A DNA stretch of 64,000 nt. Source: Eledone cirrhosa. Lineage: Eukaryota. This document shows, piece by piece, positions 1,135 through 54,258 of the stretch. The notes beneath the pieces were generated by a model, which searched no databases, had not been told where the DNA came from, and saw only the letters and a program-made list of their open reading frames with translations. How positions within the stretch are numbered: the first letter of the stretch is position 1; every line of letters begins with the position of its first letter. The position numbers and the translations under genes are program-made. The stretch lies in contig OZ024745.1 of assembly GCA_964016885.1 (NCBI GenBank), forward strand, positions 49,600,001 through 49,664,000, in the 5' to 3' direction.

Positions 1135-1330
1135 ACAGGAGACGAAAGAGGAATACTGCGTGGTTGCACATGTGTTATATATATTATAAAATTAGTCCCT
1201 CGTCAGTGATTTGCCAACCATCATTGGTATTTCATCGCATTAAAAAATCATATACCTCAGGTTGGTGCGAGCAATAACTAAAAAAAGCTATTGGGATAAG
1301 TGAGTCGCGTAAAGCGAGTGAGACAAGTAA
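1135..1330 (-). mobile_element. Short (TA)n-flanked repeat, probable PLE pLTR 3' end; family shared with 43490-43650 and 53530-54223
   Basis: Its reverse complement aligns by eye with 43494-43640. It abuts a (TA)n tract and carries a rearranged hammerhead motif. Boundaries are approximate. Confidence 0.65.
1195..1297 (-). ncRNA. Rearranged (non-circularly permuted) hammerhead-like motif, copy A
   Basis: Minus strand reads TCC-CAATAGCT..AGTTATTG-c-TCGC-a-CCAACC-tga-GGTA-TA-TGATTT-tttaat-GCGAt-GAAA-TACC-aatgat-GGTTGG-c-AAATCA-CTGACGA-gGGAc. Confidence 0.65.
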
Positions 1331-12269: not shown

Positions 12270-15200
12270 TAAGGATAAGGACTTTTTAAGTTGTCCAAAA
12301 ATGCGCATGGCTGGCTATTCAGACCACAAGTTAGTGACCTGCATGGTCAACCTTGACAGAACGCATAGACAGGGACCCGGTTACTGGAAGCTCAACTTGT
12401 CCTTACCGGCAAGTAAGGCTTACAGGGACCGGATTAGCACTTAAGTTAAGGAGCGGTTGACCGGCGCCATCGTCAACAGCAGGTGGTGGGGATCTCTCAA
12501 AAGTGAGATTAGAGTAGTCTCTATAGAATTTAGTAAGGAGTTAGCCTCAAATAGAAATAGGAAGGAAAGGGAGTTGGTAGATAGTGTAGAAGAGGCAATT
12601 AGAAGCGACGACGTGGCCAGAGTGCTAGCGTCGAGAACGGCCCTGGGCCAGTTCTTCGACGCGAAACACGAAGGCTGCATCGTCCGAAGCAATATACGTG
12701 CTCTGGGAAACGAGGGGACCAAAGCTGTTAGCTGGGCCCGCGTGACAGAAGCCAAAAGAGGGAGTAGATCCACTATCCGGTCTTTGCGAGACCAGGATGG
12801 ACGGGTGATCCTTGAACCTAAGCAGATGTGCGAGGCCTTTCAAAGGCACTTTGCCAGATTGTTCAGAATGGGCGGGGAGCCGGTTGGGGAAGTGGACTTC
12901 AGTCCATACCTCGACGGCCTGCCGCGTCTCTCGGACAGGGAGGCGAAGTCCTGCGAGGAGCCGATTTCAGCCGCTGAGATAGAGGACGTGCTGAGCCAAT
13001 GCGGCAAACGCAAATCCCCAGGTCTCGATGGTCTTCCATACGAACTATATCTAGCTATGCCGGACTTGTTCGCCGATCTCCTCGAGGCGTCTACTGTAAC
13101 TGGCAACAGAACGGGAGAATTCCCTGTGCTGTGATCAAGGTCGTAGTCACGCTAGTGAGGAAGGACGAGAACAAGGGGGACGGTATAAATAATTTCAGGC
13201 CCATAATTCTGCTAAATACAGAGTTACAGATTTTGGCCAAGGTGCTAGCAAAGAGGTTGGCGCTTACGTGGGCAACCTGGTGGGAGAGGCGAAGACATGT
13301 GCTATCCCGTCCAGATCCACCCACGACAACCTCCACCTCATGCGATACATCATAGAGAGGGTTGGGAACGAACCCGGCTTTGGTGGGGCCCTGATCAACT
13401 TGGATCAATCTAAGGCGTTCGATAGGGTCGACCGTGGTTACCTGGATGCGGTGCTAGCGGCGGCAGGCTTCGGACCCGTTTTCAGGGGCTGGATCAATGC
13501 CATGCACAGCAGCCGCATCTGCTCTAGGGTCAAGGTGAACGGCTACCTCTCGGAGCCGTTCGAAATCGCGCGGTCCATCCGACAAGGGAGCCCTCTCTCT
13601 CCCCTTCTGTATGTAATGACTCTAGAGCCACTGCTGCGGAAATTGGAGTTGTTGCAGGGCATCCCGTTGGAACCGGGATTGCGGAAAGCGGTGTCGGCCT
13701 ACGCCGATGACGTAACAGTAATGGTGTTGACGGCCTCGGAAATCGGGGCGATCGGCACCTTACTGGAGGAGTACGAAAGGTTTACAGGGGCTAAGCTGAA
13801 CCGGGACAAGTCGATCGGTCTGCAACTCGGCACGTGGAGGGGCAGATCGATGCCCTCCGATGGCGTCGTCGGGCGCTGGACGGAGGGCCCGGTGAAGTTG
13901 CTCGGGGTCAGGTTCGGACCAGACCTCCAGGTGGAGAAGAACTGGGGTGAGGTAACGAACAGTGTGTTTGCACTGACCCAGAAGTGGGCCGAGTGCAAAC
14001 TGTCCCTGAAAGGTCGGGCGGAGGTGGCGAACACTTATATAGCGTCCGTCATCTACTACCGCCTGAACGTTGTGCCTTGACCAAGGGAAACGCTCACCAA
14101 AATGGAGCGCGCACTCTTCCACTTCCTTTGGAAGAAGCGGGCTCCTATGGTGGGGAGATCCATCTGCTGTCAACACCCTTTGAAAGGAGGGCTGGGGATG
14201 CCGTGGCTAATTATACGTAAACACGCATTAAGGCTACGGCACCTCCAGGTGTGGGCCCCGTTTGTGAGGTGAGCCTTTCCCAGACTCGTCTCGCTCACCG
14301 AGATGCAATCCTGGGTCAAGCAAAGACCGAGAAAACTGGGCGCCTGGCACACCGAGTGTGCCCAGGCCCTGACGGCTCTCTGGCAGGCGGACCCGGCTGT
14401 CAGTGGAGAATCCACCTCGTCATTCTATAGAGGGCTGGTGGTTAGCAGGTGCGACGACGCCCTCGGAGAAGCCCTAGACATGGAGGAAGACGAACTGGCC
14501 AACCTGTTCGGTAGGACATTCAGCCCGGGACCCATGGATAACTTCCAGAGGTCCCTGGCCTGGCAGTGCTACCGAGGGGCTCTACCCGTTCGAGAAAGGC
14601 TCTACAGACACGGGCACCCGGGTAGGGACCCCTCGAAAAAGATCTGTCCTAGATGTGTGTGCGACGAGGAAACCGTTGCACACGCATTGGTACACTGCTC
14701 GGGCATTGCCGATCTGTGGGGCTATGTCGAACAACTGCTGTCAGGGGTGGGACCGATCCGGTTGACCACCGAGTCTATTGTAACGATCAAGCCGCCTCCC
14801 CTCTTCAAAAACGAAGGAGAGGCGGTGTTTCTGTGCGTAATAGCCATGGCGAAAGAGGTTGTATGGTGGACGCGTCTGAAAGGACTGAGGTCAGACACCT
14901 TTCTCTCTGGCCAACAACTGGTCCGTTTCTTCCGATATCATTTCGGAAGAAGGATCAGGATGGAGAGAGAGGTGCTGCACCCCAGCCGTTTTTATGAAAG
15001 ATGGGTAAAAGTGGCGAGAATGGCAGACTATAGGTGAGGAAGATAAAAGATCAAGTGAGCACCCCCTCTCTGTGCTCCTGAGGAGAAGGGTTGCACACTT
15101 TTTTTGGGGGGGGGGGGGCGACCCCCCAAGGCGCCTCCTCCTTATTGAGGATTTTGTTATTAAATTTATTTTTGTTATGTTGTATTTTATTTTTATATCT

Positions 15201-21828: not shown

Positions 21829-22500
21829 CGGTGAGTTTCACTGAAAACGACACCCTTTGTTTCGGCTTTGAGTATGATTGTTTACTATATACACCTTCAG
21901 GGCGGTGAGTTTCACTGAAAACGACACCCTTTGTTTCGGCTTTGAGTATGATTGTTTACTATATACACCTTCAGGGCGGTGAGTTTCACTAAAAACGACA
22001 CCCTTTGTTTCGGCTTTGAGTATGATTGTTTACTATATACACCTTCAGGGCGGTGAGTTTCACTAAAAACGACACCCTTTGTTTCGGCTTTGAGTATGAT
22101 TGTTTACTATATACACCTTCAGGGCGGTGAGTTTCACTAAAAACGACACCCTTTGTTTCGGCTTTGAGTATGATTGTTTACTATATACACCTTCAGGGCG
22201 GTGAGTTTCACTAAAAACGACACCCTTTGTTTCGGCTTTGAGTATGATTGTTTACTATATACACCTTCAGGGCGGTGAGTTTCACTGAAAACGACACCCT
22301 TTGTTTCGGCTTTGTGTATGATTGTTTACTATATACACCTTCAGGGCGGTGAGTTTCACTGAAAACGACACCCTTTGTTTCGGCTTTGTGTATGATTGTT
22401 TACTATATACACCTTCAGGGCGGTGAGTTTCACTGAAAACGACACCCTTTGTTTCGGCTTTGAGTATGATTGTTTACTATATACACCTTCAGGGCGGTGA
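21829..22500 (+). repeat. Minisatellite, 9 x 74 bp, near-identical units
   Basis: Unit CGGTGAGTTTCACTRAAAACGACACCCTTTGTTTCGGCTTTGWGTATGATTGTTTACTATATACACCTTCAGGG, starting at 21829, 21903, 21977 ... 22421. Confidence 0.97.
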
Positions 22501-30478: not shown

Positions 30479-31292
30479 CGTAAAGTTAAACTAGCATACT
30501 CCTGCGCTAAGAACATGAAGGCCCACATCACCAGCAGCCCTAGGAGCAACACCCCACCAGGGTGCTCTTGCTGTAAGCCTGAAGCTTGTCCCCTTCAACA
30601 GCAATGCAACACACCAGCTGTAATTTAGGAAGCTGTGGTCACTTCCAACCGACCAAACAAACCACAGGAGGTCAAATCCTATGTGGGCATGGCGGAGGGC
30701 CGATTTAAGGAACGTTTCCTGAACCACCAGTCTACCTTCAGGTACTCGGACAGACATTCATCTACGAAACTCGCGAGCCACGTATGGTCCCTCAAGGACT
30801 CAAGTATAGACTACTCCATTCAATGGAAAGCCATCACTAAGTCCAAGCCATACTCAAGGGGAAATCCGACGTGTGGCTTACGTATTGACGAACGAATAAC
30901 TATTCTAAAGAGATTACGCAATAGTGATTGCCTAAACACGAGAAATGAATTTTTCACACGTTGTCCACACGTCACCAAACACTTATTGCATAACTACAAG
31001 GCTCTGGACTGATTCTTTGTAATTTTAGTTTCAACCTAAAAACTTTTCTGACTTTCTCAGTTATCTCCCTTACACCTCTCGCACGCAGTCTAGTATTGCC
31101 TGTGTGAAGTGACCGGGTTTCTGCGCATGCGCATTCGTACGGTTGTCCTTCCTGTTCCTATAACCATGCCCATTCCGAGCTGAGGATCCGCTAAGGTGAA
31201 ACAATTGTTCTCGTGTAACCACTTCTACCTAACTCGTCCCATGGACTGAGTGCTCTACCCCTACGGATATTACCTTCCAGTGTTCCACCACT
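30479..31292 (+). mobile_element. 5'-truncated Penelope-like element: C-terminal GIY-YIG endonuclease, 3' pLTR with hammerhead
   Basis: [73 protein letters not shown], with one in-frame stop at 30626. Both ends in (TA)n. Confidence 0.88.
31176..31213 (+). ncRNA. Minimal type I hammerhead ribozyme motif
   Basis: cgag-CTGAGGA-tccgctaaggt-GAAA-caattg-TT-ctcg; palindromic stem III. Confidence 0.75.
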
Positions 31293-32900: not shown

Positions 32901-33117
32901 CCTACACGGCCACATTACAGCGTGGACTGTGTGTTTTTTTGTCGTGACACCTACACAACCTCATTTATTTAGGACTGGATGTTGTGATACCAACATAAAT
33001 TTACAGAGAAAGGGTGTAGATGGGGTGGGGGTCTATTTTTGGTTAAGAGGTGCCTACTGACTGTAGGTTTCGCTTTGTAGGCAAGACGGGTCTTCAGTAT
33101 TATATATATATATATAT

Positions 33118-33344: not shown

Positions 33345-33822
33345 AGGTCCAAACACAATGGAACCAAACTCCCACTGTCACTGCCTTAGCCTCTCCCGAT
33401 CTCCTCGGCTCTCACTATTGTGAGCAAATGGGAGCCACCCAGCTGGCCACCCCGCTGTCCCGGCGGACAGAATAGAGAAGGCATTTCCTCGGATGATGGT
33501 GAAGGAGACGCACTGGAAGATCCATTCCAGTTCGCGAGACTCACACCTGCGGGTAGCCAACTCTGTGCCGATGGTGGTAAATAAGGAGGTGGTCCTCGGG
33601 CCAAGGACACCAGAAGTCTCTACTCCTACGGGCTCGACCGCAAACCTGTCGGAGAGCGACCGATATTTGGAGAGTTTACTCTCCTCGGCCCGAAATGCAG
33701 CAGAGCTTGGGTTAGTCGCAGACTGCACCAGGTTACCGCTGAAGAATGTTTCGCTGCGTGTGGCATCGCAGATGAGAGGTTTATCACAGCGGAACGGGAA
33801 GATGATCATGCCGCCTGGCCTA
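33345..33822 (-). pseudogene. 3' fragment of a CRE-like non-LTR retrotransposon (restriction-like endonuclease domain)
   Basis: RPGG(RPDG-like)..CDAT..AAFRAEESKLSKY..PVGVETSGVLG..IFQCVSFTIIRGNAFSIL matches the typical CRE C-terminus. The 3' end abuts a (TG)/(TA) microsatellite. Confidence 0.75.
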
Positions 33823-35450
33823 TGTTAGTATTACTACTGTTTCCTACTTTTAATCTTTGTCAGAATTTGATCAATATTTTTCTGTTTATTCGTTATTCCA
33901 AGGAATGATACAATTGTGCAATATTGATAACTACTTTTAGACTGTAAGATACGGCTAACCGGGAAAATTTGCACTTTTATATAAAGGCTTTAACGTAGGC
34001 AAGTTTGAATAGTACGGGAGCGGGGGAAGCCAATTGAACATGTGAGCTGCGAGTCCACTGAATAGAGATATTAACATTAAGCAGAATATCTTATAGTCTG
34101 TGCAAATGGAAAATCCATTCATCAAAATTTTGTCAGATATTCATTATTTCTTTCTTGTATAGTAAATGTCTTCTACTGCGGAGTTGAATTTGTATTTGTT
34201 TTACTGTTTACTGTCTGTGAAACGTGTTTGTTTTAGTTCGATATTTTGGGGCTGAGAAATGGTCTCTGATGCTGTAGCTATTTTATTTGTTTTAGAGTAG
34301 CAAAAGAGGACATTTGGGTGGGGGAGTATGGTTTGGTTTGGCAGGAATCATGGGAACAGGTTGGTGTTCGGTTTAGAGTGTTTGCTGGGCTTTAGTAGAC
34401 TGATTGGAGCAATAACAATCTTAATTACGTATATTTCCATCTCTCTCTCTCTCTCTCTCTCTCTTATTCTCTCTCTCTCTCGATTTGTATGCCTCCATTG
34501 CTTCCTTTCTCTCTGACTCTTTCGTTCACCATTTCTACCTCTATCCCTCTCTCTGTTCTTTCTTTCCCTCTTTTTTATCTCTTTCGCTGATCCTCTCACT
34601 CCACCTCTTTCTATCCATTTCGTCCACTGTTTCTTTCCCGATTCCTCATTATCCCCCTCTCTCTCTCTATTCTTTCTCCCACTCTCTCTCCCTATTATCA
34701 CAAAAACAACAATACACCCCCCACCCCACCCCCAATACACTGATATAGTTACTACCTTCTCCTCACTTTTATCTTCACTGGTTAGTCTAGTCTAGTACCT
34801 GCTGATTTTCCAGCACTCTGATCCACCCAAAGTATTATTTCCTTTCTGTCTTCCATTTCCCGAAGAAGCAGACAACAGTTCCTCATATATTTTCTGTAAC
34901 CTTTTCAAGTACCGAGAAACAACTGTCATTTTACATGATGTAATTCAATATTTCATAAATGAAACTGCACCACGATAACAGACTAGTAGAAATATCAACT
35001 TAGGGATGTAGATGAAATGAATGGCAAAAGATGTACAACTTTCCCATTCACCTAAGCTCGTTCATTCATATGTCGTAATTAAAGTAAAAGTTATCTATTC
35101 CAGTAATATTATAGTAAAATCAGAGTAGCACCTTCTCTTCTCTTTCTTTCGTGTTTCCTTTCTTTTATTTTTTTTTTAGTCAGAGAAGGTAGAACTGTGG
35201 CCATGATCCATTACAGAACCCCGGGGCAGATGGACGGCGGGTAGGAAGAAGCAGTCTTCATACCGGAGACCTTGCTTCAATATTTGCTACAAAGTGGACT
35301 CCGCAAAAAAAGGAACTCAGGGTAGGTGTTGATATTAAATTGGGCAGCGGATTGAGTCTACCATCCAAGTAGATCCCAGCGGGGTTCGAATTCAGAACGC
35401 AAACAGTCGGAAGAAAATGCAGCAAGGCAACTCAACCGGTTCTCTAATAA

Positions 35451-37432
35451 CACCGTGTAACAAAAAAAATATTTTTCTCTGTTCCTGGGTTGTAATCACT
35501 TTTTTTTGTGTTGCTTAGGTCCCAAATAAATATAAAAAAAGTGCTATTAAGCAGTTAAAAAGTTTGGGTTTGTAAAAATTCTAAGCTATTCACTAGAATT
35601 ATTTTTATGCTGGATTTTACGTTTAATTTGCTTATGTTAAATGATTTTATTATATATGTTTCAGGTTAAATTAAAATTATAAAATAAAGAGTAATACCTA
35701 AAGAAAATTATAAAAGTGCAATAAAGTATAAAATTGTTAAAAAGTGGATTAAAGAGATTTATTGATACTGGATTTTCGCACCCTGAATAAAGGGTAAGTT
35801 GTGTTTTAAGCACGAATTTTCATTAGTATGATTAGTGTTCTTTTATATTATTTAAATATGTATTTCCCTTTCCAATATTTATTTTGTATTGCATATCAAA
35901 TTTATTTTCCAAGACAAGTATTCTGATGAAGAGGAGGAGATGGATGCTGAGGACTTGGATTACCTGCCTGAGGTACCAGAAAATGTTCCTCACTTCCCAA
36001 ACCAAAAAGAAGTCAATGACTTGGTCAGGGATATGGGTCTGACCAAGTCCAATGCAGAGCTATTCGTCTCCAGGATGAAGCAGGGGAACTTGGTCAAGGA
36101 GGAAGTGCAGGTGACAAGTCAGAGAAGTCGACACGAACCTTTCTCAGGCTTTTGCAATCTCAGGGATGGCCTCTGCTTCTGCCATGACGTGCCTGGACTG
36201 TTTGACGTTATTGGGGTGCCGTTTGTGCCCAAGGAGTGGCGGCTATTTATAGACAGCTCCACCACAAGTTTCAAGGCTGTCCTCCTCCACAATGGAAACA
36301 AGTTCCCGACACTGCCCCTAGCTCATTCAGTCTGCCTGAAGGAAGATTACTACAGTGTGAAAGTCCTCATGGAAGCTCTGCAATACAACCAGTACAATTG
36401 GGAAATCATTGGAGACTTCAAGATGGTGGCTTTCCTGCTTGGACTCCAAGGAGGCATTATCAAATTCCAATGCTTCCTCTGCCTTTGGGACAGCATAGCC
36501 ACCTCTGACCACTACAAAAGAAAGAACTGGGAGCAGCGAACAAAATTTGTAGTTGGGACCCGGAACGTCATGTGGGAGCCACTGGTTGATCCCAGGATTG
36601 TGCTCATGCCGCCACTGCACATTAAGTTGGGTTGATGAAGCAGTTTGTGAAGGCTCTCAACCAAGAATCAGCCGCTTTTAAGTACCTTCTTGAGTTCTTC
36701 CCCAAGTTATCTGAGGCCAAAATCAAAGGTGGAATTTTTGTTGGACCTCAGATAAAGAAGGTGTTTGAGTCTACCGAGTTCTCCAATAAGCTCAATAGGA
36801 TTGAGAGAACAGCATGGAACTGTTTCAAGGCAGTTGTTAAGGTCTTCCTGGGCAACTACAGAGCTGAAAACTACCAGCAACTGGTGCAGGATCTGATAAA
36901 GGCTTTTGGCACCATGGGATGCAGGATGTCGCTTAAACTCCATATGCTGGACGCTCACCTGGAAAACTTCAAGGACAATATGGGCGCCTACTCAGAAGAA
37001 CAAGGCGAACGATTCCACCAAGATGTGAAAGAGATAGAGCGGAGGTACCAGGGCCACTACAATGAAAGAATGATGGGGGACTATATCTGGGGGCTAGTGT
37101 GGGAATGCGACCTGGACTACAACGCAAATCCAGGAAATCCAGTCATGTCTGACGTGTATAAGTTGATTTATAAGTGTTATTTGTTTTTACTTGTTTGCTT
37201 TTGATAAGCTTGTGAAATAAAATAAATATATACTCTGTTGATTTAATTATATGAACTGATAAATTTTTTAAAAATGTGTTTTTTCTTGAAAAATATGAAA
37301 ATTTCGAAATATCAAACTCCTGACCACAAACCCAAACTTCTGATTAAATAATAGTGTTTTTTATAATAATGGGATATAACAAACCATGAAATGACACTTA
37401 GAACCGGGGAACAAAAAATATGTTACACGGTG
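35451..37432 (+). mobile_element. Chapaev3-type (CMC superfamily) DNA transposon, internally deleted
   Basis: TIRs CACCGTGTAACA / TGTTACACGGTG; TSD TAA at 35448-35450 and 37433-37435; internal transposase. Confidence 0.88.
35913..37160 (+). pseudogene. Chapaev-type transposase catalytic region, single frameshift near 36633
   Basis: WRLFIDSS..KAVLLHNGN, IIGDFKMV, CFLCLWDS, PPLHIKLG/[L]MKQFVKAL, GIFVGPQI, SEEQGERFHQD, MMGDYIW. The N-terminal zinc-finger region is absent. Confidence 0.85.
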
Positions 37433-43014: not shown

Positions 43015-43493
43015 ATGGCTGCCCCCTCGTTATCGAGTATGACCATTGCACGTTATACCATTATTAATAATTATTATATATCGTGCAATGCCTGTGCGTG
43101 AAGATATTTTTTAAAGTGAGAAAAGACTGTGCACTGAGCCAATCCCACTGTCTGAGCGACAGTAGCTATAACCCGAAAAGAAGAAAAGATCAACATCATC
43201 GGTAACTACTGAGCCGCAGGTTTTATATCGGAGTTATCCCAGTTTCCTGAATTTTATTCGTAGATAGTCGATAGACCAATCGCCCTGTCTTGTGTCCATT
43301 TGTTACCGTCCTATGTGCTCTGGGGCTAGTGATACCGACGTAAATTCACAGAAATCAAAAGGATCTCCAGGGATCGACTGATGAGAAAGGTCTGTTCCAT
43401 GTTTCGTCCGTTTTTCCGTTGTCTTCGCCCACCTTTTTTTAAAATTGATTCCGCGAAGAACAGTCATTCAAATATACGTATATATATATATTT

Positions 43494-43591
43494 GTCCTAA
43501 TAACTTATTTTAGTTATCGCTCCAACGTGAGGTATATGATTTTTAATGCGATGAAATACCAATGATCGTTGGCAAATCACTGATGAGGGAC
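43494..43591 (+). ncRNA. Rearranged (non-circularly permuted) hammerhead-like motif, copy B
   Basis: GTCC-ta-ATAACT-tatttt-AGTTA-TCGC-t-CCAACG-tga-GGTA-TA-TGATTT-ttaat-GCGAt-GAAA-TACC-aatgat-CGTTGG-c-AAATCA-CTGATGA-g-GGAC. Lies in a ~155-bp insert between two (TA)n tracts. Confidence 0.7.
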
Positions 43592-49958: not shown

Positions 49959-52162
49959 GAAAACACAGGTAAGCATTAAGAAAATAATTTTATCCAGGTA
50001 TTTACGACCGTTTCATTGGTAAGTGCAACCTTATATTGCTATACTGCAAATAGCAACCACTCAATGATAATTGTTGTTCACGTCCAAATTTTCAAAATAG
50101 TGAGTAAGTTACTCTTAAAAAAGTTCTTAATATATAGAGAAAAACATTTTTTTAAAATTGTATTTACTAGTATAGAGAGAGGGGAAGAGGAATTAGAAAG
50201 TGGGGGACAAACGGGATAGTATAGAGAGACTCTTAACCTAAATACGGGACTTATAAGACCTTTTCACAAGATTAATGAAAACTTAGCATACATCAACTGT
50301 AACTCAAACCACCCACTATCCATATTTAAATCCATTCCACGCAGCATATCCTTTAGGATCTCCCGCCGACAAATCTTCGAGAAACATGCAGAATACTACA
50401 ATACCGCACTAGACAAGGCAGGCCACTTAGATAGAGTAGAATATATAGATGAGAGCCTCCGCAAAGCGCACACGAACACGCATAACACAAACTCCAGAAA
50501 CACACGCACACACGCACTTACGCATAGAACTACAAATTATACTGTAAATAGAAATACAACATCGAAATCAAACAAGTCACGCAGTAGAAAATATATTTGG
50601 TATAACCCCATATTTAACACCTCTATTAGTACTAACCTACCCTCTACCTTCTTTAGAATAATAAATAAGCACTTTCCAGATTCACATAGATACAGCAAAA
50701 TCCTTAACACTAAATCTATTAGACTATCTTACTCCACGGCACCAAACATAGAGGCACACATTAAGATGCTTAACGCTAAAAAGATACATAACAACACCAG
50801 AACACAAATTTATAACAATAACAATACAATCACCATTGAACACAACAGAATATCTAGTATACAACCACCCACTAATAGGCAAACAAAACGTAACACACTT
50901 GTACAGGCATCGCAGCCCACCAATAATGCCAAAGTTGCCCATGACAAGAATTGTAACTGCCACCTACCTGAAACGTATCCATTACATAATGAATGTATGC
51001 AGTCTAACCTGGTTTACCAATGCACAGTAGAATCAGACAACCAGAAATGGTATTACATCGGAGTGACTGGGAATACATTTAAAGCCCGTTGGTATACACA
51101 CCGTTACGCAATGAAACATTCCCAGCATCGTTATGTAACTACCCTTGCAAACAAGACCTGGCAACTGAGGGAAAGTAACCACCAATACACCCTGAAGTGG
51201 AAAAAATTATCGAACGCGCCCCCATATTATATTATGGTATGAAGCTGTCGATTATGTGATCTTGAGCTGTTCCACATTTTGAGTTCGAAGAATAAGTTAC
51301 TCAACAATAAAATCGAAAGATCAATTTATTGTAACCATAGACTCAAAGAAATGTTTTCGCACTACAAGTGCAAATCGAACCCTTAAACTCTTGCTAGCAC
51401 CTGACAAACTGCATATACTTACACTTTCTACCCTCTTATTGTATCTAACCCCTTTAATTACCCACAAAAACCAATACATATATCCCTCCCTTCTCCTTCA
51501 TTCCTTTTCTATTTCTTTTCGTTTTCTTCCTTTCTTCTCTCCCCTTTTTGGCTATTTTTTCTCTTATTCTTTCTCCCCCCCCCCCCTTCTTTATTTTTAT
51601 TTGTTTTATATATATATTTCTCTCTCTCTCTCTCTCTCCATCCCTCTCGCTATAAACAATTTAATTCTCTTTAACTCACTACAATCTAAATCGACATGAA
51701 GTCTACGTATCAAAACTGATCAAGGAATCCTTCCACTTCTACTCCTCCCTCCATCTTAGTTTGTCCCTCTACTTCCTAACTCTTCTCCCCTTTCCTCTCT
51801 CTCTATACTAGTAAATACAATTTTAAAAAATTGTTTTTCTCTATATATTAAGAACTTTTTTAAGAGTAACTTACTCACTATTTTGAAAATTTGGACGTGA
51901 ACAACAATTATCATTGAGTGGCTGCTATTTGCAGTATAGCAATATAAGGTTGCACTTACCAATGAAACGGTCGTAAATACCTGGATAAAATTCTTTTCTT
52001 AATGCTTACCTGTGTTTTCTCTTTTATACTTTATACTCCAAGATTGAACGGAATTCTTACAAACGTGTGGAGTTACTCCTAACCGTACGTTGAAACCGTC
52101 CATGAAACTGGCTTTCTTAACCACAAAGTGGATCACAATAAGCATTTTCCTGCTTCCCTAAC
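49953..52162 (+). mobile_element. 5'-truncated Penelope-like element with inverted 5' pLTR
   Basis: Thumb-like HINCNSNHPLSIFKSIP, KYIWYNPIFN..INKHFP..IRLSYS, CNCHLPETYPLHNECMQSNLVYQC..YYIGVTGNTFKARWYTH (GIY-YIG). 49953-50218 is the reverse complement of about 51755-52026. (TA)n on both sides. Confidence 0.88.
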
Positions 52163-53529: not shown

Positions 53530-53534
<5 letters not shown>

Positions 53535-54222
53535 AATAATGGAGCTGCGGCGCTGCAAATGGGTTACATATGAAAAAGTTTGTCCTCATCAGTGGCCATC
53601 CAACGTCGTAGGCATTTCGTCGCATTAAAGGCCATATACCTCACGTTGGTGCGAGCAACGGCTAAAAAAAAGTCGTTGGGACACGTAAATAAAGGGGACG
53701 CTAGGGTAAACAAACAAAATGGTTTAAGCAGCAGAAAGAGAGGAAGAAGGAAACAAGTCCCAGATTTCTATGAATATAAATTCGGTGGAATCGTGAACGA
53801 GAGAATAAAGACCATCAAACCTGGTTGAAATGTGAGCAAGGAAGGAATTTCGCACAGGTCTAACGGGAGGAAGAAGGGGTCTGGTCTGCGAATTCGGTAA
53901 ACATAAGTTCTGTGAAGTCGCAGACGAGAGAGAGAGTGAAAAAAAATTCATACCGGCTTGGCCAAGTGCCCGCGAGAAAAGGATTGTGGACAGGTCAAAC
54001 GGGAAGAAAGGGGAGGAGGAGAGGTAGTGACAGAGAGTGAGTGAGTGAAAGGTGAGGAAGAGGCTAACAGAGAGAGACTGCTAGAAAGGGTAAAGACACA
54101 AAGAACGAAACAGACTGGTGGCAGCGGAGGAAAAAATATATGTGTAAATATGATAATAATGGAGCTGCGGCGCTGCAAATGGGTTACATATGAAAAAGTT
54201 TGTCCTCATCAGTGGCCATCCA

Positions 54223-54223
<1 letters not shown>
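53530..54223 (-). mobile_element. Non-coding element with ~75-bp direct terminal repeats (pLTR-like) in (TA)n
   Basis: 53530-53604 is identical to about 54149-54223; purine-rich interior; carries rearranged hammerhead copy C. Confidence 0.7.
53581..53683 (-). ncRNA. Rearranged (non-circularly permuted) hammerhead-like motif, copy C
   Basis: Minus strand: TGTCC-CAACGaCT..AGcCGTTG-c-TCGC-a-CCAACGT-g-AGGTA-TA-TGGCC-tttaat-GCGAC-GAAA-TGCCT-acg-ACGTTGG-at-GGCCA-CTGATGA-GGACA. Confidence 0.72.

Positions 54224-54258
<35 letters not shown>

Follow-up and report, generated by a model that had tools for sequence, protein, structure and literature searches.

The 103-base feature studied here lies on the minus strand at positions 53581..53683 of a 64-kb window of the Eledone cirrhosa genome (the whole stretch analysed, 49,600,001 to 49,664,000 of contig OZ024745.1 in assembly GCA_964016885.1) and, judged from its sequence, is a hammerhead-type RNA with the strand order S-G-C. 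Its helix II appears to be opened, the 5' strand of the RNA, here termed the splint, pairing with both halves as a four-way junction that would hold the core; we put the probability of this arrangement at roughly 80%. The sequence order, the absence of a normal stem II and the covariation of both splint helices and of the hairpin between them are direct observations. We named the feature copy C; two further full copies are found in the window, copy A (1195..1298, minus strand) and copy B (43494..43591, plus strand, with a shortened hairpin).

Read from 5' to 3', copy C starts with the splint left arm UGUCC, the 5' strand of helix P2a (TGTC(C) in the DNA, 53679..53683), whose partner is the tail after CUGAUGA, as indicated by folding, duplex energies and covariation. 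A junction hairpin with a U-rich loop (53656..53678) separates it from the right arm, the 5' strand of helix P2b (53650..53655), which comprises UCGC (53651-53654) and one flanking base on each side; its pairing with the strand before GAAA is supported by covariation, genome pair counts and metagenomes. One base after UCGC, the same strand enters CCAAC(G), the 5' strand of helix P4 (53644..53649), followed by a GA on the 5' side of the kink-turn-like loop that separates P4 from stem III (53641..53643), the stem III 3' strand with its AUA triplet (53635..53640) and the stem I 5' strand (53630..53634). The predicted cut, placed from the hammerhead consensus, is at 53635/53634. A 6-base link leads to the G block (53611..53623), composed of the P2b 3' strand GCGA (53620-53623), position 11.1 (C 53619), GAAA (53615-53618) and the stem III 5' strand. 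A 3-base bulge and the other GA of the kink-turn-like loop come next, with the P4 3' strand (C)GUUGG (53600..53610), then the C block with the stem I 3' strand and the CUGAUGA core (53586..53597, CTGATGA at 53586-53592) and, finally, the tail GGACA (53581..53585), the P2a 3' strand, in which position 10.1 (53585) can pair either way. All these elements are on the minus strand. Compared with most copies, copy C carries a 1-base deletion and a substitution, at 53603 and 53644, which make P4 one pair longer and the kink-turn-like loop shorter.

The earlier note had claimed, from these three copies, that the two stem II strands pair with an upstream segment, around a hairpin that persists despite sequence change, and with each other only next to the core. 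Coordinates, duplex energies and the swap, slide and held-out controls described below confirm the pairings in A, B and C. The left arm and tail give duplex energies of -7.0, -5.0 and -6.6 kcal/mol in C, A and B, respectively, and the right arm and GCGA strand give -6.5, -6.6 and -5.9 kcal/mol, while a direct, canonical stem II would contribute +0.5, +1.0 and -0.1 kcal/mol. Nested folding for minimum energy gives the left-arm/tail helix and the hairpin unprompted in each of the three copies; the whole-fold z-scores are weak (-1.65, -1.43 and -0.71). The hairpin of copy B does pair as claimed, but its strand AGTTAT and TCGC overlap by one base (43517), and at this overlap copy B is 3 bases shorter than most of its closest relatives. 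The splint also runs on, one base further, into a third helix, CCAAC/GTTGG, the counterpart of the helix that links stems I and II in type-SGC hammerheads.

To extend the comparison, 247 distinct cores from all fetched loci were reduced to 120 "wired" copies, those with at least 4 of 5 pairs in each of stems I, III and P4 and with a UH site; the splint was not used in the selection. The 120 copies were grouped on core positions into 29 clusters. Copy C is outside the 120 because of its 1-base deletion and was included in a separate alignment. Pairs were counted in a table of 22 rows, from which 10 of the 29 clusters (1-8, 10 and 20, decayed or with no clear hairpin) were left out and in which clusters 11 and 22 were represented by a second copy. 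The hammerhead core CUGAnGA, GAAA and UH is present throughout, with CUGA-GA and GAAA fixed by the search patterns. Position H, where selection excluded G from the wired genome copies, is A or U in all 12 wired hits of a metagenome scan that left the UH site free. U16.1 and the A15.1-U16.1 pair are invariant (22/22 rows). Stem I is 98% paired with two-sided changes in 5/5 pairs, and stem III 97% with 4/5; P4, the second strand of which comes from the 5' side, is 99% paired with two-sided changes in 4/5 pairs, its pairing being also a selection criterion. The 5' GA of the kink-turn-like loop is found in 86/120 genome copies, where anchoring favoured it, and in 12/12 wired metagenome hits, where it did not; most remaining copies have UA or UC, and the 3' GA is fixed by the pattern. 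Elsewhere in the window, at 33040-33097 on the minus strand, CUGAAGA is followed by CGAAAC and a small hairpin after a TA run; this segment lacks a UH site and is probably not a hammerhead.

Stem II, folded as a single duplex between the G block and the C block, has 0 bp in 17 of the 120 wired copies, 1 in 73, 2 in 23 and 3 in 7; thus 90/120 have at most one pair, and the maximum is 3. The linkers are 6 and 14 nt in most copies, inside the published type-SGC descriptor (0-8 and 0-15 nt), and the stem II that characterizes type SGC, a C-G pair with at least two further G/C-block pairs, is not found. Canonical types I-III and a shifted canonical stem II were rejected. Since the stem-II feature is lacking for both types I-III and type SGC, we classed the element as a variant that would work like type SGC.

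The right arm of the splint was defined by position alone, the left arm as the bases preceding the folded hairpin. The right arm and the pre-GAAA strand are paired at 86% of positions in the 120 copies, against 11-65% in slid registers. In the 29 cluster medoids, 72% of positions are paired compared with 59% after swapping of partners, and 0/20,000 swaps were as good; the swap and slide controls leave kinship among copies in place. The core-proximal pair is U-A, A-U or G-C depending on the family, and the next one C-G, U-A or U-G. Genome-wide, this second pair is C-G in 7,868 matches, U-A in 1,875, U-G in 169 and C-A in 134, the C-G pattern being slightly narrower than those for the other pair types. 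For the left arm, the mean energy with its own tail is -5.38 kcal/mol versus -4.01 with swapped tails (24 medoids; again 0/20,000 swaps as good), and shifted windows give -2.0 to -3.1 upstream and -0.1 to -0.3 kcal/mol downstream. Its pair types include GUCC/GGAC, UUAUCC/GGAUAA, GUUUUCC/GGAAAAC and UUUCCCU/AGGGAAA. Across the 22 rows, 78% of left-arm, 97% of hairpin and 88% of right-arm positions are paired; the counts understate the core-proximal splint column, which MAFFT misplaced, and the pairs of the two tail registers, which it cannot display.

The hairpin keeps its pairing in these rows, as the earlier note had claimed, with two-sided changes in 5/7 pairs; in the oldest families it seems to be absent. 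The old decayed clusters 1-7 carry GUCCC, 2-3 bases and then the right arm, with no convincing hairpin, so that the hairpin may be optional. Two such hairpin-less loci (L113 and L192) retain GUCCC/GGGAC at -9.8 kcal/mol, and a decayed copy of an older hairpin-less family was recognized by eye on the plus strand at 43305..43395, about 200 bases upstream of copy B. The core-proximal pair between the stem II strands likewise holds for part of the set: a direct 10.1-11.1 pair (G-C, A-U or G-U) exists in 73/73 copies of the four large window-type clusters (15, 16, 18 and 19), but in just 17/29 medoids and 0/12 metagenome homologues. Where it is lacking, the splint usually pairs right up to the core. 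From these sequences, all bases of the junction seem to be paired in the widespread form, the splint taking both 10.1 and 11.1 as partners.

Held-out homologues were sought in metagenomes, the search pattern being restricted to the link, the core and two letters on the GAAA side. Of 25 hits, 12 are wired by the rule used for the genome copies. In these 12, the right arm and the base facing 11.1 are paired at 60/60 positions, versus 26/65 in the other 13. The right-arm letters are unrelated to those of the genome (GCUCC/GGAGC, GACCC/GGGUC, GCCCC/GGGGC), and pairing across the two sets is 42-56%. The hairpin is flush in 10/12, the left arm reaches 7-10 bp in 9/12, and 10.1 and 11.1 are mismatched in all 12. 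Most wired hits follow the stop codon of one kind of open reading frame (ORF), the ribozyme starting right at the stop (loci L242, L252, L254, L255, L257, L258, L260, L262 and L265). A Pfam search of the ORF ends beside two of the hits returned nothing significant; the ORF end resembles a restriction-like endonuclease of HERO-type retrotransposons, a likeness that Pfam left unconfirmed. Viral contigs gave 0 matches.

The same junction was recognized by eye near the 3' end of seven published consensus records of Naiads, a group of Penelope-like elements (supplement of Craig et al. 2021, PMC8557442; here and below, statements on publications refer to their accessible parts). These are Naiad_Aacu, Naiad_Anas, the record before them, Naiad_Obim, Naiad_Ovul and the unnamed records before Naiad_Dcar and Naiad_Ppla. 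By eye, they have a right arm of 6 bp (mismatched once in Naiad_Aacu) and a left arm of 3-8 bp, with A-C, U-C or C-C at 10.1/11.1. Other Naiad records examined there are wired differently. As seen by eye, the record before Naiad-1_Dst would represent a second way to open stem II: in its S-G-C hammerhead, the tail has its partner strand within the S-G link, while the strand on the GAAA side folds locally into a hairpin.

The pairings are kept, with changes on both sides, in other families and organisms, which supports the multiway junction clamped by the 5' strand that the earlier note had proposed. That note had called for a covariation test on genome-wide copies and would have dropped the proposal had the pairings failed in additional copies; both splint helices covary across the 29 clusters and the pairings are conserved, so that support once judged modest is now much stronger. 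In the predicted fold, the four-way junction would consist of the core side, the left-arm/tail helix, the hairpin and the right-arm/GCGA helix. The right-arm helix may stack on the core as an outer helix II, and the left-arm helix and the hairpin on each other. One base after the right arm, the same strand would form the helix tying stems I and II, and the kink-turn-like loop would bend this interaction helix back to stem III. The module UCGC-A-CCAAC is thereby shifted to the 5' side, running on into stem III through the kink-turn-like loop, so that the fold can be viewed as a type-SGC hammerhead whose original ends have been joined and whose stem-II strand opens anew just after 10.1; the left-arm/tail helix would staple the resulting ends together.

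Several observations weigh against this arrangement. Of all the helices in this genome, those of the splint are the most poorly conserved (78% and 88% compared with 97-99% for the others), in a sample that contains decayed copies as well as copies chosen for change at that site. The nested folds also give competing right-arm pairings. The margins over the controls are narrowed by composition: GC repeats let slid right-arm registers reach 53-65%, and the pyrimidine-rich left arm and purine-rich tail still give -4.0 kcal/mol when swapped. In the subfamily of cluster 21, 3/7 copies combine a UC-type arm with GCGU, leaving a U-U mismatch at the core-proximal pair. In 3/12 metagenome homologues the left arm is weak, short (3 bp) or unclear. 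Copies multiply single events: the U-A state of the second right-arm pair is probably one amplified lineage, and the 12 metagenome hits amount to about three families. Copies chosen for change at the base before 11.1 (224 matches) are mostly single decayed or truncated copies and revealed no new families. Finally, homology between elements is lost near the ribozyme in 56/153 copies and exactly at the predicted cut in only 3/56; many of these end points fall at TA microhomologies and some are reference mismatches, and we regard them as uninformative on the cut.

How much of the splint matters can be read in another way, as a variant compatible with the core of the preferred fold. The right arm alone may count, UCGC/GCGA serving as the outer helix II, with the hairpin and the left-arm/tail helix as accessories that tidy up the junction or, in a circular monomer, seal the body; cleavage would then proceed in their absence. 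The apparent loss of the hairpin in clusters 1-7, the poor left arm of those three metagenome hits and of two Octopus Naiad records (3 bp and one mismatch) and the constant 10.1-11.1 pair of the window-type families all fit this possibility, which we nevertheless find rather doubtful: the left arm is the sole partner of 10.1 wherever 10.1 and 11.1 cannot pair (12/29 clusters and all 12 metagenome homologues), it attains its 7-10 bp in metagenomes with changed sequence, and it persists in the hairpin-less families L113 and L192. That the complementarity is due to chance in short GC-rich motifs biased to purines or pyrimidines, the ribozyme running on a 1-bp stem II, was suggested by the 3-5 bp helices of the window and by slid and swapped controls that remain above zero. 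This explanation is largely refuted, and its chances are now very slim, as no swap in 20,000 matches either helix, unrelated letters pair perfectly in the held-out loci compared with 42-56% across sets, and even the 1-bp stem is absent in many families.

The splint could also act chiefly over a long distance or in trans: the tail and the GCGA strand would then pair with a splint located in the following unit, about 520 bases downstream, or in another molecule. The elements are indeed tandem (periods of 500-670 bases), the element of copy C has a second tail upstream, and many animal hammerheads act as dimers (PMC7229834, PMC4209133). Local pairing, however, requires no partner molecule, and for the left arm in a circular monomer the local and long-range readings coincide; moreover, a single base separates the right arm from P4, and P4 leads on to stem III and the cut site, an arrangement that ties the right arm to its own ribozyme. 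We hold this arrangement to be distinctly improbable. The fold may, on the other hand, be real yet no longer, or never, catalytic, a structural signal for kink-turn protein binding or reverse transcriptase recognition on a hammerhead scaffold. The lack of enrichment of homology end points at the predicted cut agrees with this view, as does the poor in vitro cleavage of minimal Penelope hammerheads (PMC4209133). It appears unlikely given that all families retain the core letters and the UH site, U16.1 in every row and UH even in the unselected metagenome hits, and that every intact SGC example tested cleaved (PMC10085705).

Among known ribozymes, the closest is the type-SGC hammerhead (HRIMA-1 and variants; Eckert et al. 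2023, PMC10085705), which shares the S-G-C order, the short link from stem I to the stem-II strand and, in our own reading of construct SGC-1, an I-II helix reached one base after the stem-II strand. It needs stem II and the I-II helix for cleavage. Type SGC has an ordinary G/C-block stem II duplex, with the module of stem-II strand and interaction strand on the 3' side, whereas here the module is 5', stem II is opened and the interaction helix is linked with stem III through a kink-turn-like loop; the former is described only from metatranscriptomes, the latter is a high-copy animal repeat. The pistol-like pseudoknot hammerhead (Zhan et al. 2024, PMC11300833) works with a helix II of A9-G12 and one 10.1-11.1 pair, an outside-strand helix substituting for the remainder. 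There, a loop joins 10.1 to 11.1 and pairs with another stem-loop; here the strands are separate, both pair with the 5' strand, and the direct pair is optional. In the accessible literature, with many subscription papers beyond reach, we found no description of a natural hammerhead whose helix II is splinted. Searches for hammerheads presuppose a stem II that joins the CUGAnGA and GAAA strands and are therefore blind to the splinted form, which both published descriptors would miss; Eckert et al. assume that block C cannot be interrupted (PMC10085705). An Rfam scan of the window gave just microsatellite-driven noise and no hammerhead among the 150 of 261 matches listed.

The host of copy C is a non-coding repeat of about 620 bases, of which approximately 1.1 units lie between TA runs (53530..54224, minus strand); 54150-54224 duplicates 53530-53604 and contains the C block alone. 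The core pattern has 11,917 matches in the genome and its reversed control 0, and patterns that exclude the family of copy C give 1,278, 219, 357 and 1,766 further matches (controls 88, 3, 4 and 5). Ribozymes on the same strand are mostly spaced by 500-670 bases, in tandem arrays with one ribozyme per unit. A long array of this kind, with a unit of about 515 bases, extends over G000:C1:81.55-81.64 Mb (L128-L150), and many of its units are mismatched in stem I beside the core. As non-coding tandem or dispersed repeats with a single hammerhead per unit, probably linked to Penelope-like elements, the repeats resemble non-LTR (long terminal repeat) retrozymes (PMC7229834; Li et al. 2026, bioRxiv 10.64898/2026.07.22.740005), but these have type I hammerheads in units of 170-400 nt, neither of which is found here, in place of the split SGC form in 500-670 nt. 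They also show the insertion into TA repeats, partial tandems and inverted copies reported for Naiads (Craig et al. 2021, PMC8557442). A scan for reverse-transcriptase motifs up to 1.5 kb upstream of the fetched loci gave 6 unconvincing matches only; no protein search of the genome was made.

Other mobile elements are scattered through the window. ORF fragments at 30629-31012 and 50220-51242 (plus strand) have no Pfam hit and are presumably C-terminal GIY-YIG endonucleases of Penelope-like elements. A broken non-LTR retrotransposon spans 12445-15037 on the plus strand, with an RVT_1 match at 13193-14077 (E 1.3e-17), and an ORF fragment on the minus strand (33378-33824) carries a motif that we take for the endonuclease end of such an element. 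Two adjacent ORFs at 35856-37204 (plus strand), the first with no Pfam hit, belong to a DNA transposase-like gene that is assumed to be Chapaev-like. A near-perfect tandem repeat with a 74-base period occupies 21829-22500.

In the proposed cycle, the cut after AUA (53635/53634) would free monomers of about 500-670 bases from tandem transcripts of this non-coding retroelement, which are probably moved by Naiad Penelope-like elements, whose enzymes would copy the monomers into TA repeats. After two cuts, the 3' end of the monomer would bear the whole splint and could re-pair with the 5' end: because the 5' product carries the splint away with it, the cut ends would stay joined through four helices, favouring circle formation. 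We lean slightly towards the broader proposal of a natural active class, with a 5' splint closing a perfect four-way junction that takes the place of helix II. This class would be a seventh wiring of the core that breaks the three-block rule and is common to Naiads, their non-coding parasites and a second type of retrotransposon across animal phyla. The hammerhead core would then tolerate a broken strand and could even do without the 10.1-11.1 pair. A construct of 100 bases is quick to assay and offers a natural splint-dependent design for RNA switches. If the element cleaves, each genome holds more than ten thousand candidate ribozymes that have gone unnoticed. Naiads have been reported to carry no canonical hammerhead, with the core or a half-core only (Craig et al. 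2021, PMC8557442, in its accessible text); should cleavage occur, they would carry a hammerhead after all, and the statement that these abundant elements spread without one would need revision.
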